A stretch of 64,000 nucleotides of DNA from a virus (IMGVR_UViG_3300033075_000708:712-64711); one strand, 5' to 3'; shown: positions 60,867 through 64,000, counted from the stretch's first letter. The notes: generated by a model from the sequence alone, not told the origin. Translations and numbers: made by a program.

Positions 60867-61421
60867 TTAGCCCACGCTCTTCACCAGGGGCTTTTGCCAG
60901 GTCCAGCCGGGTATCTTGACTTCCGTCCTAACCCCCTTATGCTCAAGGACTACCGAGTGGAGCGGCGTCCTCCAGTTGCCGTAGTCGTGGATGACCCAGC
61001 CCTTCTGGCCGAACCAGACCAGCGGCATGCTCACCCTCAGGTTGGGCATGATCTTGGGGTTGAACAGCACGTCGTGCAGGTTCACCCAGATCGGCTCGGT
61101 CGTCTCCCCCTCGCTGTGCCTGAGGGGCTTGTAGGGCACCATCACGGTGACGTGGTGGATCTGGCTGTGTTTGCCACGGACCTCGCCCACCAGTTCCGCC
61201 TTCTCGCCCTCCAAACCAGTTTCCTCCCTGAGTTCCCTCAGGGCAGCCTCGACCGGCGTCTCGCCAGGCTCGATCTTGCCGCCGGGCAGGTGCTGCACGT
61301 TCGCCAGGTAGTCGTGCCTTGGCGATCCGCCGTAGCAGGTCGCCAGCACGAAGAAGCAAATGTCCGTCACGTCGGACGCCAGCGGGTGCCTTGGCGATCC
61401 ACCGTAGCAGGTCGCCAGCAC
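60867..61421 (-). CDS. NUDIX hydrolase whose first 36 codons are the CRISPR mini-array
   Basis: Nudix box GGKIEPGETPVEAALRELREETG; TAAGGAG-ACAACA-GTG, where GTG is the first 3 nt of the repeat. Confidence 0.85.
   Translation of the reverse strand: MLATCYGGSPRHPLASDVTDICFFVLATCYGGSPRHDYLANVQHLPGGKIEPGETPVEAALRELREETGLEGEKAELVGEVRGKHSQIHHVTVMVPYKPLRHSEGETTEPIWVNLHDVLFNPKIMPNLRVSMPLVWFGQKGWVIHDYGNWRTPLHSVVLEHKGVRTEVKIPGWTWQKPLVKSVG
61314..61421 (-). CRISPR. Minimal CRISPR array: two 36-nt repeats, one 36-nt spacer
   Basis: GTGCTGGCGACCTGCTACGGYGGATCGCCAAGGCAC at 61421-61386 and 61349-61314 (1 mismatch); self-complementary; 72 nt from the cas12 stop. Confidence 0.85.
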
Positions 61422-61493
61422 TGTTGTCTCCTTAAAGCCTTTCGGCCAAGCTCCTTGCAGGGATATTTTTCAAGCACCCCGCAGCCAGGAGAC
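61422..61493 (-). promoter_or_regulatory. Structured leader between cas12h and the array
   Basis: GTCTCCT / AGGAGAC closing stem, GCGGGG / CCCTGC stem, GCC-GAAA-GGC hairpin. Confidence 0.55.
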
Positions 61494-64000
61494 TCACCCC
61501 GTCTCGTCGCCCAGACCTGTGTGTCGCAAGTCTTCTGAGGATTTGCTTTTAGACCATTCAAGCACCTCTTTGAGTGAGAATGCAGCGTAAGTCTCGCCGG
61601 GTCCGGCCATTAGCTCCACCGGCCTCGGCTTGCAGCCAGCGGCCAGCAGATGCTTGATTTGTTCAAGCACCTCAAAAACCTGTCGATCTGACAGGAGGCC
61701 GCTGCTACTCGGGTAGACCGTCAAAGCCTTGGCCTTCTTGGACTTGGCGGCGTCAGCCGAACCAACGGGGAGTCGCCCGCTCAGGCCCTTCTCCCTGAGG
61801 AACACCTTCAGCCTTTTGCCGCCATCCTCCTTGACGTTCACCCTCCCAGAGGGATCGACTTTGAACTTGTGGGGGACCACGCTGTGGTTCAACCCCTTCG
61901 TCAGGACGTTGATACTCGCAGCCAGGTCGTCGTTCACGCTGACCAACTCGCCGTCGATAAGGCCGACGAGTTCACGCTTCTTCATGGAGTCCCTGTACCA
62001 GATGTCCCCGGTGATCGGGTGACGGCGGGACGTGCCGCTCGGATCGACCGTGACCACGGCAATGCCATGCGACTCCAGCAGCGACGTGATGGCGTCGATC
62101 AGTTGCCCTGGGGCGAACAACCTTTTCAGACTGTTGTGGGCATTGCCATCGAAACTGGTCGAGAGATCCTCGATGAAGACCACGTCTGATCCATGACACG
62201 CCCTCAGAACGGCGTTGGCGTACAGGTGGGAGACATGCTCCCTGAAGTTCAGCCTAGCCGTGCCTTTGCTGGTCTTCTTCCTGGCTACACCGAAGTTACG
62301 CCCAGCCAGGGCGGGTTTGCCGCTGAAAGCGTCGAAGCAGGCGGTCAGTGCCCTGTGGGTGTCATCCAACTGGAGCATCCTGATGCACCCTGACACGTCG
62401 TTCGCTCCCTGCTGCATCAGTTCATACTTGAGTCTCCGGTAGGTCTTCTTGAGGCTGCTGTAGACAACTTGGATGGACTCCCTGTTGTTGCGGCAGGGGG
62501 GCTTGCTGATGTCTGCGTACAGGATCTTCAGCCTCTCGCTGCCCTCGGAACTTAGAGGTGTGCCGGCCTTGTGACACGCCTTTGACTCCCTTATGACTTC
62601 GATCAGGAGACGCATTTTACGGTGCGTCAGTTTGGCCTCCTGCGAGATGGGCGTGTCGGGGCATACCGAGCGGGGCTTGCCCGTTAGGTGGCCTCCACCG
62701 TAGGGGCAGTTGATCTCCCCTTCGGTGTAGTTTTTGCTGACGATGGCCTTGGTGACGGTAACGGGCTGATCGATGTTGAGGTCGATCCCGCTCACGATCA
62801 GTTGATCTGGGAGTTCCTCCAGCCCCTTGCCATCCTTCCAGTCAGCCCTCTTGAAGAACCAAGAGAGGTGCCTGCGGTCGTCTTTTACCGCGATGCTGTG
62901 CGGCAGGTAGACGTAGAAACTCTCCTTCCCACGGCGGTTCATCCGCCTCTGTAGTAGGATCTGCTTCACCTCTCCCTCGATGAGGGGTCCACCCACGCTT
63001 GACTTATAGCCGGCCCGTTGCCGGCGTCGGTTCTTAACCATTTTCCGGTAGGTGATCTTGTAGCCCTTGTCGGACGGCAGGGCCTCAACCTTGAGGTTGC
63101 CGAAATAGTCAGAGGCGGCACATGAGAACTCCTCATGATCACCGATCTTGACCCACAGCCGCCCGCTGTCGTCTGTGCGGAGGGCGAAGCTCTCGCCGCG
63201 ACCAGTCATCCCGAATGGGATCTGGTAGTCCTTGTCGAAGAGCGGCCTCTTCGGTGCCGCCAGCGAAGTGGACAGCTTCCTCTCGGCCTGCCAGGTGTCC
63301 ATCAGCCTGGCCCTGTCTTCCTTGTCCAAAGCCAGAAGGGGCTTGTATTTGGGGTCCGCCAACTCGGTGATAGCCACCATGTAGACGGAGTCGGTTTTAG
63401 CCATTTCCCGTATGGCCCCGTTCAACATCTTGGCTGTCAAGCCTGAGCCGGCTTCCTCAAGGGCCTGAGCCAACTGGCAGACGAGTGCGTATTCCTCCGT
63501 CATGCTGTCGGGGACGGCGGCCTTGGCCGCGATCTCTTCCCTCCTGGCCCTGTGTAGCTTCGCACACTCCTCCCAGGAACTCAGAGAGGAGGAGAGCATG
63601 TAGGCAAGGGCTGTGGCGTATGACTTGGAGTCTGGCCGCAGGGTCGGCAGGTTGCCGACACCCCTGGACGCCAGGGTGGCCTTGTTGGTGACGCCCACCT
63701 TGACCTTAATCTCCTCCCACAGGGCGTCGGGCGGCTCGCCGGCGATGGCCCGGTTCCTGTAGCCTGCCCATTCGTCGGGGTCGAGTCCGTTTAGCTTGAG
63801 TGCCTTGGCATACTTCTCGTCGCCAATGGTCCCAAGCTCGGCAGTTAGCCGACCCAGTGCAGAGTCCTTCCTGGGGAAGGGGAGTGGAGTGTATTTCGCG
63901 TAGAATGAGCCGTATGCCGCCTCTTGGCCGGCAAAGAGGGCGTCAGCGAACGCTTTCTTGGCGTCGGACTGTGACTCCGGGGTCACCACCTTGAAGCATT
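61494..64000 (-). CDS. cas12h: Type V CRISPR effector, Cas12h-like; 5' truncated by the window edge
   Basis: RuvC-I SGIDLN, RuvC-II FIEDL, RuvC-III NDDLAASINV; DYQIPFG, SDYFGNL, GLNHSV, GKRLKVFL match my recollection of Cas12h1 blocks; frame open to base 64000. Confidence 0.8.
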   Translation of the reverse strand, partial: CFKVVTPESQSDAKKAFADALFAGQEAAYGSFYAKYTPLPFPRKDSALGRLTAELGTIGDEKYAKALKLNGLDPDEWAGYRNRAIAGEPPDALWEEIKVKVGVTNKATLASRGVGNLPTLRPDSKSYATALAYMLSSSLSSWEECAKLHRARREEIAAKAAVPDSMTEEYALVCQLAQALEEAGSGLTAKMLNGAIREMAKTDSVYMVAITELADPKYKPLLALDKEDRARLMDTWQAERKLSTSLAAPKRPLFDKDYQIPFGMTGRGESFALRTDDSGRLWVKIGDHEEFSCAASDYFGNLKVEALPSDKGYKITYRKMVKNRRRQRAGYKSSVGGPLIEGEVKQILLQRRMNRRGKESFYVYLPHSIAVKDDRRHLSWFFKRADWKDGKGLEELPDQLIVSGIDLNIDQPVTVTKAIVSKNYTEGEINCPYGGGHLTGKPRSVCPDTPISQEAKLTHRKMRLLIEVIRESKACHKAGTPLSSEGSERLKILYADISKPPCRNNRESIQVVYSSLKKTYRRLKYELMQQGANDVSGCIRMLQLDDTHRALTACFDAFSGKPALAGRNFGVARKKTSKGTARLNFREHVSHLYANAVLRACHGSDVVFIEDLSTSFDGNAHNSLKRLFAPGQLIDAITSLLESHGIAVVTVDPSGTSRRHPITGDIWYRDSMKKRELVGLIDGELVSVNDDLAASINVLTKGLNHSVVPHKFKVDPSGRVNVKEDGGKRLKVFLREKGLSGRLPVGSADAAKSKKAKALTVYPSSSGLLSDRQVFEVLEQIKHLLAAGCKPRPVELMAGPGETYAAFSLKEVLEWSKSKSSEDLRHTGLGDETG

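Follow-up and report, generated by a model that had tools for sequence, protein, structure and literature searches.

The window analysed in this study is a stretch of 64,000 nucleotides (nt) that corresponds to bases 712–64711 of a linear, 64,711-nt IMG/VR virus record (IMGVR_UViG_3300033075_000708), and the element in question, a type V-H CRISPR–Cas cassette, is encoded on the minus strand at the far end of it. The cas12h gene (61494–64000) ends with a TGA stop codon (61494–61496), and its frame (61494–63998) is open for 834 codons and continues off the window edge. Because the end of the window is also the end of the virus record, the gene is cut at its 5′ side, where about 60–80 codons are missing; its C-terminus is complete, the alignment reaching residue 856 of an 860-amino-acid (aa) relative. 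Between the stop codon and the array lies a leader of 72 nt (61422–61493), followed by repeat 1 (61386–61421), the only true spacer, S1 (61350–61385), and the terminal repeat 2 (61314–61349), each 36 nt long. The array runs directly into the body of a NUDIX hydrolase gene (60867–61313; Pfam NUDIX, E = 1.9e-16) without its native first 31 codons, and 36 nt of NUDIX-coding sequence (61278–61313) occupy the position of the next spacer, where they form a candidate guide together with repeat 2. The original prediction, derived from the nucleotide sequence alone, had described a Cas12h-like effector gene adjoining a hairpin repeat. The array was indeed the neighbor of this open reading frame (ORF), but it was not free-standing. 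A minus-strand ORF (60867–61421) starts at the GTG of repeat 1 and continues in frame through repeat, spacer and repeat into the NUDIX domain, and the NUDIX gene has lost its own 5′ end to the array.

The predicted ORF of more than 831 aa with the three RuvC residues D, E and D was recovered as the 834 open codons, in which D406, E610 and D691 (positions in the truncated protein) were invariant in a family alignment of 25 sequences and aligned with D465, E658 and D740 of Cas12h1. All family-invariant residues, including this catalytic triad, are present across the open codons, and the GTS..P.TG segment of the Cas12h family stands in for the CxxC zinc finger of other TNB domains. A phmmer search against all PDB sequences gave Cas12h1 as the best match (E = 1.4e-73, 29% identity), with residues 16–740 of the window protein aligned to residues 80–792 of Cas12h1, followed by Cas12X/Cas12o/Cas12-2 at 3.6e-16 and Cas12f at 3e-3. 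Among the PADLOC models, Cas12h scored an E-value of 3e-100 and the runner-up Cas12f 2e-4, which upheld the predicted subtype. Pfam and NCBIfam returned only sub-threshold matches of TnpB/Cas12f type, confined to the C-terminal RuvC/TNB part. TnpB, a protein of about 400 aa found in transposons with an omega-RNA, was rejected as the identity, as this match reached 30.4 bits against a cut-off of 100 in the C-terminal part only, the protein exceeds 834 aa and a CRISPR array is present; the PF07282 match, at 18.7 bits against a cut-off of 26.3, likewise fell below its threshold.

Relatives of the protein were obtained by searching 1.84 billion cluster representatives exhaustively with HMMER, a word-indexed protein search having returned nothing. 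There were 77 of them, 43 with E-values below 1e-30; one bears the UniRef name Cas12h1, and the closest is 36% identical to the window protein. In a FastTree phylogeny of 60 relatives, the window protein was placed inside a 44-member clade together with Cas12h1, in a 13-member subclade (Shimodaira–Hasegawa-like support of 97), on a terminal branch of 1.3 compared with a median of 0.94. Clustering with TnpB or another subtype was not seen. With the family alignment as input, AlphaFold gave a model (mean predicted local distance difference test score (pLDDT) of 79.9) whose six best matches in the PDB were all Cas12h1 (E-values from 1e-44 to 1e-38, template modelling score of about 0.66), followed by Cas12X/Cas12o (E = 3e-28) and Cas12b (7e-16). 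The phmmer search, PADLOC, the tree and the fold thus agreed that the window protein is Cas12h and not TnpB or another subtype. Pattern-based scans of IMG/VR with the window protein, P0003, P0004, Cas12h1 and a 9-sequence alignment as queries found no other Cas12h. The G+C content at third codon positions (GC3) was 0.78 for cas12h, near that of the intein-bearing genes, and 0.84–0.92 in most other phage genes compared; cas12h was not distinct from phage genes in codon usage, which was too weak a signal for dating the acquisition. A 272-nt contig of run X2, a hot-springs metagenome from another study, was 100% identical to cas12h at positions 63489–63760, and this run gave no good match to the phage backbone adjoining cas12h, the depth of 2 being too low for a conclusion.

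The repeats begin on the minus strand with 5′ GTGCTGGC and end with GCAC at the 3′ side. The two copies differ by one base, with pairing preserved, and each is predicted to fold into a bulged hairpin of about -18 to -21 kcal/mol (z-scores of -3 to -4), in agreement with the 36-nt hairpin repeat originally noted beside the ORF. Its original assignment to type V-H could be set against the published Cas12h1 repeat, which is also 36 nt long, starts with 5′ GTGCTGGC, ends with GCAC 3′ and is followed by the guide (Supplementary Table 2, PMC11830025). The ungapped alignment of the window repeat and the Cas12h1 repeat showed 20 of 36 identical positions and the same helices. A common structure of 13 pairs fitted both, with 98% of pair cells paired and compensatory changes at five pairs, and the window repeat is of the V-H type, as originally assigned.

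No sigma-70-like promoter was found on the minus strand of the leader, and since the leader holds no promoter-like site, the array is probably co-transcribed with cas12h. The sequence AAGGAG (61433–61428) lies 6 nt ahead of the GTG opening repeat 1, and translation of the array may yield, as a by-product, a chimeric NUDIX protein with an unnatural N-terminus. As the two repeats, owing to their single difference, share no 31-mer and the cas12h contig described below is unbranched, the array does not represent a longer one collapsed in assembly. The leader was also considered as a degenerate repeat and rejected, its local alignment being no better than that of shuffled sequences, and a repeat-like string inside dnaB (60778–60813, minus strand, GTGCTGG...GGCAC; 19/36 identity, 10 bits) was dismissed as a chance match. 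Apart from palindromic self-hits and the solitary element described below, a covariance model found no further repeat-like or anti-repeat matches on either strand of the window. A search of Rfam gave no match, and outside the window the exact and loop-free repeat patterns were unmatched in IMG/VR and in metagenome contigs. Within the spacer, a consensus scan marked a terminator-like sequence at 61362–61377 (minus strand), in which a 5-bp G+C-rich hairpin is followed by a U-rich run.

The junction between the array and the NUDIX gene was examined in run X1, the probable source sample, which contains 98% of the sampled words of the stretch and the Logan contigs of which were placed on positions 60000–64000. 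The backbone contig (26,159 nt, depth of 12) ends at 61313, and the graph forks at 61313/61314, which is the outer end of repeat 2, at the last repeat base and with no trailer DNA. Both branches begin with a 30-nt overlap (61284–61313). The cassette branch (2,406 nt, depth of 7.37) proceeds through the array, from repeat 2 across the spacer to repeat 1, and on into cas12h, and the alternative branch (236 nt, depth of 5.8) leads into a different sequence. The two depths, 7.4 and 5.8, sum to about 12–13, that is, the depth of the backbone, about half of which carries the cassette, the cassette-bearing allele being the commoner one in this run. In the NUDIX frame, the 30 visible bases of the alternative branch encode LVMLTNDNRT directly ahead of DYLANVQH, and 9 of these 10 residues are identical to the N-terminal strand native to the closest homologue. 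This NUDIX homologue is 65% identical overall and can be aligned to the window ORF only from DYLANVQH, which starts at the first codon after repeat 2.

The alternative allele restores the native N-terminus, and therefore the cassette replaces codons 1–31 of the NUDIX gene. The N-terminus encoded by the array departs from the native one in all 13 aligned NUDIX homologues, 12 of which show two N-terminal strands before the Nudix box, the one without them being an N-terminally short member. In the AlphaFold model of the 184-aa ORF, block means of pLDDT were 43–61 for residues 1–40 and mostly 81–93 for the body. Since the terminal repeat is joined exactly at its last base, the place of the next spacer is taken by phage sequence. 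The same phage backbone thus occurs in two forms, one with an intact NUDIX gene and one with the cas12h–array cassette in place of its first 31 codons, and the cassette is an accessory element and not core phage DNA. In run X3 of the same study, the backbone was covered up to 61278 and cas12h was not covered, at a depth of 2–4 that is not evidence of absence. A protein search for short NUDIX fragments, as the cassette-free allele would give, yielded none from this phage, and a metagenome-contig search for loci related to the NUDIX homologue returned nothing.

A third member of the repeat family was found about 17.5 kb from cas12h. This solitary element (43887–43922, minus strand, 36 nt) is identical to repeat 1 at 25 of 36 positions, including the first six and the last eight bases, a level that was reached in 0 of 200 simulated windows. 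It is predicted to fold like the array repeats, bulge included, and with a higher stability (-23 kcal/mol, z-score of -5.6), with A:U and U:A replacing the array pairs G7:C28 and C8:G27. The covariance model, built from four repeats of which the solitary element itself was one, scored it at 50.9 bits and anything else in the window at 14.6 bits or less. The element starts 3 nt past the stop codon of a 112-aa ORF without a known family, in a 292-nt stretch without a convincing gene; the small flanking ORFs matched no family, no U-run follows the element, and its flank had no significant match elsewhere. As a single copy located away from the cas genes, it has the sequence features of a viral solitary repeat unit. 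Possible roles are those of a guide unit with one repeat, of a decoy as known from RNA anti-CRISPRs (Racr), or of a scar from an earlier recombination.

The spacer S1, for which the original prediction had noted no match by eye, has no second copy in the window, either at up to 3 mismatches or at up to 7 mismatches in the first 24 nt. None of the three possible guides has an exact self-match of more than 10 nt at the end proximal to the protospacer adjacent motif (PAM). Searches of phage and plasmid collections with S1 gave chance-level matches only (best E = 0.03, 28 nt with gaps), and there was no match in IMG/VR. An exact match to the first 22 nt of S1, preceded by GTG, was found on contig CAYSOF010000009.1 of a Candidatus Binatia metagenome-assembled genome (positions 1184–1205 of the locus examined), in a gene for a small secreted collagen-like protein. 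The other 14 nt agree at one position only, and in 1.2e12 positions a 22-mer this rich in G+C would be expected by chance roughly 0.1–0.5 times. This seed match was rejected as the target of S1, being at chance level and not extending further. No Cas12h match was found in the Binatia genome or in 401 genomes of its phylum, the latter search being run without a positive control. The system may be aimed at a competing element or a host gene, as originally proposed; the cassette-free allele of the same phage is the only candidate target that can be named.

These data are best explained by a functional and recently mobile type V-H cassette, intact in sequence and carried by a huge phage, a reading to which a probability of about 80% was assigned. 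By analogy with Cas12h1, the array would be transcribed with or just after cas12h, and Cas12h would cut the precursor CRISPR RNA (crRNA) at the 5′ edge of each repeat. The product would be a crRNA consisting of the 36-nt hairpin and about 26 nt of guide, with neither a trans-activating crRNA nor an adaptation module involved. On the same model, PAM-dependent R-loop formation would be followed by RuvC nicking or cleavage with a preference for the non-target strand. For Cas12h1 itself, the mature crRNA contains all 36 repeat bases without a 5′ flank, plus 26 nt of spacer, and the PAM is purine-rich (RTR/DHR, with 5′-DHR-3′ as the wider form; PMC11830025).

Several observations weigh against this reading. 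The two alleles are known from the assembled contigs of one sample rather than from raw reads, and the alternative allele is visible for just 30 of at least 206 bases. Within cas12h, the depth drops from 7.4 to 3.6 and the contigs break near 63673–63689. Intactness refers to the sequenced part of cas12h, the N-terminus being off the contig, and the equivalents of R8 and Q10, which hold the 5′ end of the crRNA in Cas12h1, lie beyond the contig end. S93, the residue by which Cas12h1 reads the PAM, aligns to a 5-residue gap in the window protein. Because this region is deleted, the PAM of the window Cas12h may differ; the equivalent of T334 of Cas12h1 is kept as T265. No convincing protospacer for S1 was found in the phage, plasmid, IMG/VR and bacterial searches, and there were no RNA runs among the listed runs holding the stretch.

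The join could also be an assembly chimera, in which a cas12h array of the host or of another element was connected to the phage through a spacer matching the NUDIX gene; the solitary repeat of the phage would then be an RNA anti-CRISPR mimicking the host repeat. Such an origin would account for a join exactly at the repeat/spacer boundary, for the fork of the graph at this point, for the depth of cas12h below that of the backbone and for the end of the contig inside cas12h. The trinucleotide ACG before the 36 nt in the cassette-free allele fits the Cas12h1 PAM 5′-DHR-3′ (PMC11830025), and viral solitary repeats are described as decoys in PMC10651486. A chimera would, however, require a second fork at about 61278, whereas the backbone is unbroken to 61313 and the fork is a simple one with one path in and two out. 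It would also leave the branch with the intact NUDIX gene at a depth of 12, whereas 5.8 was observed and 5.8 plus 7.4 restores the backbone. The cas12h contig is unbranched at the repeats, which means that a third identical repeat of comparable depth is absent. A third member of the repeat family is also present on the phage backbone itself. Finally, the Joint Genome Institute assembly behind the IMG/VR record has the same join, larger word sizes being assumed for it. A chimera was consequently considered improbable.

The probability is lower again for a decaying relic, that is, a real phage cassette that is non-functional, damaged in its unseen 5′ end and hitch-hiking with the phage. Its single spacer, for which no target was found, the unseen N-terminus, and the depth drop and contig breaks in the 5′ part of cas12h would all suit a relic. 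It is nevertheless hard to reconcile with 834 open codons retaining every invariant residue of the family, with a complete C-terminus, with two intact repeats whose single difference keeps the pair, or with the cassette allele being the commoner one in the sample. Minimal arrays, moreover, are usual in phage-borne type V systems such as CasPhi and Cas-lambda. The least credible of the alternatives, and one given hardly any weight, is that the repeat–spacer–repeat segment is primarily protein-coding, forming the genuine 5′ end of NUDIX, and merely looks like CRISPR. AAGGAG stands 6 nt before the GTG and no other start has a ribosome-binding site, the 108 nt contain no stop codon and share the frame of the NUDIX body, and a public protein collection includes a gene called with exactly this length. 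The frame, however, is automatic for 36 + 36 + 36 nt, and a stop-free run of 36 codons is not rare at this G+C content. The repeats, moreover, bear the V-H signature and helices that are conserved through compensatory changes, and a Cas12h gene ends 72 nt before them. The N-terminus is unlike that of all 13 aligned homologues, the same phage population holds an allele with the native one, and the 36 residues encoded by the array were modelled at low confidence.

A further step beyond the functional cassette is speculative and, although possible, doubtful. The cassette may have been captured by recombination between a donor V-H spacer and a NUDIX protospacer and may now behave as an RNA-guided homing element. 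Repeat 2 together with the adjoining NUDIX sequence would give a crRNA against sibling phages with the intact gene, and the carrier would be spared as the CAC at the end of the repeat occupies the PAM position. During co-infection, the empty allele would be nicked or cut and thereby excluded or converted. The trinucleotide ahead of the 36 nt after the junction is ACG in the cassette-free allele and CAC in the carrier; ACG fits the DHR PAM of Cas12h1 and CAC does not, and the guide formed by repeat 2 and its flank would match both alleles identically. As expected of a homing-type element, cassette-bearing and cassette-free alleles coexist at one site in one population. The PAM argument is weak, because DHR fits 28% of trinucleotides and S93 falls in the deletion. 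The solitary repeat at 43887–43922 may represent another such unit or else a decoy of older date.

The carrier is a large phage, as indicated by the IMG/VR record and by its phage replication genes, and CheckV estimated the record at about 13% of the phage genome. The window encodes a UvsX/RecA recombinase and, directly downstream of the NUDIX gene, a DnaB-type helicase (59182–60828); no IMG/VR relatives were found through this neighboring DnaB. Homologues of PrkA and SpoVR are also present (6230–11913). These two are normally bacterial stress or sporulation genes. The prediction of a system lacking cas1 and cas2 held for the whole 64.7-kb record, about 13% of the genome, in which no Pfam match to Cas1 or Cas2 was detected, and the phage-borne V-H system that it had proposed was recovered as a Cas12h effector with a V-H-type repeat in a phage record. 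Inteins with a LAGLIDADG domain interrupt both thymidylate synthase (ThyA) and dCMP deaminase, and a helicase of 1009 aa has a LAGLIDADG insert (16824–18791, 54642–56372 and 39955–42984), which makes the carrier rich in homing elements.

Cas12h1 is a characterized editing and diagnostic enzyme whose natural carrier has been described as unknown, with phages proposed (PMC11830025). A clear member of the Cas12h family accompanied by the family repeat on a large-phage fragment directly supports this proposal. The window protein is a divergent new Cas12h, at most 36% identical to its relatives, and with its changed PAM-reading region it may offer a different PAM. The repeat-flush polymorphic junction and the solitary repeat exceed routine annotation, and the two alleles, the truncated NUDIX gene and the third repeat are the new elements of this description. 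A backbone with and without the cassette, joined flush with the repeat, is a rare natural snapshot of a virus gaining or spreading a CRISPR-Cas locus. It makes two ideas testable, namely spacer–protospacer capture and RNA-guided homing between sibling phages, the latter of which, if true, would be a natural analogue of the synthetic CRISPR gene drive.

Among known systems, the closest is Cas12h1 of type V-H (Yan et al. 2019, as cited in PMC11830025), the structures of which are 8y9l, 8y9m, 8y9n and 9l12. The two proteins are homologous over nearly their full length and share the RuvC triad and the GTS..P.TG segment. Their repeats agree in length, in both termini and in the bulged hairpin, the guide follows on the 3′ side of the repeat on the strand of the cas gene, and both systems are without adaptation genes. 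The window protein differs in its fairly long branch and in the 5-residue deletion at the S93 region. The window system has a single spacer, its phage carrier is demonstrable and its cassette is polymorphic and interrupts a gene, whereas Cas12h1 was called of ‘unknown biological origin’, phages being only suggested as the source (PMC11830025). Cas12o1, Cas12X and Cas12-2 (8xca, 8wru and 8zqb) and Cas12b belong to the same wider Cas12 branch and gave second- and third-tier matches, but these were far weaker and the window protein nests with Cas12h1 instead. A compact single effector, a short array, the lack of cas1/cas2 and a huge-phage carrier are shared with CasPhi/Cas12j and Cas-lambda (PMC11830025), which represent another Cas12 lineage (fold E-values of about 1e-5 to 1e-7) with another repeat.

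Recombination between spacer and protospacer is known to carry CRISPR-cas loci over to phage DNA (Varble et al. 2019 and Watson et al. 2018, reviewed in PMC8616872). It predicts precisely the junction of the window, in which the repeat gives way to phage sequence at the spacer position and a PAM-like trinucleotide stands at the unrecombined site. Those cases were laboratory staphylococcal and Pectobacterium systems involving transducing particles, whereas here a stable phage allele would have resulted. Viral solitary repeats, in turn, are known as decoys or RNA anti-CRISPRs (Racr), and no V-H example is named among them in the passages of PMC10651486 that were searched. The solitary element resembles Racr in that one CRISPR-like repeat of a viral genome lies apart from the cas genes and keeps the repeat fold, but the window genome also encodes the matching Cas protein, because of which the element may alternatively serve as a one-repeat guide unit or be the scar of a recombination. 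Finally, the homing endonuclease genes of large phages provide a parallel in that a nuclease cassette is present or absent in otherwise identical genomes and its insertion destroys the context of a recognizable site, in this case the PAM position; the difference is that recognition here would be guided by RNA.

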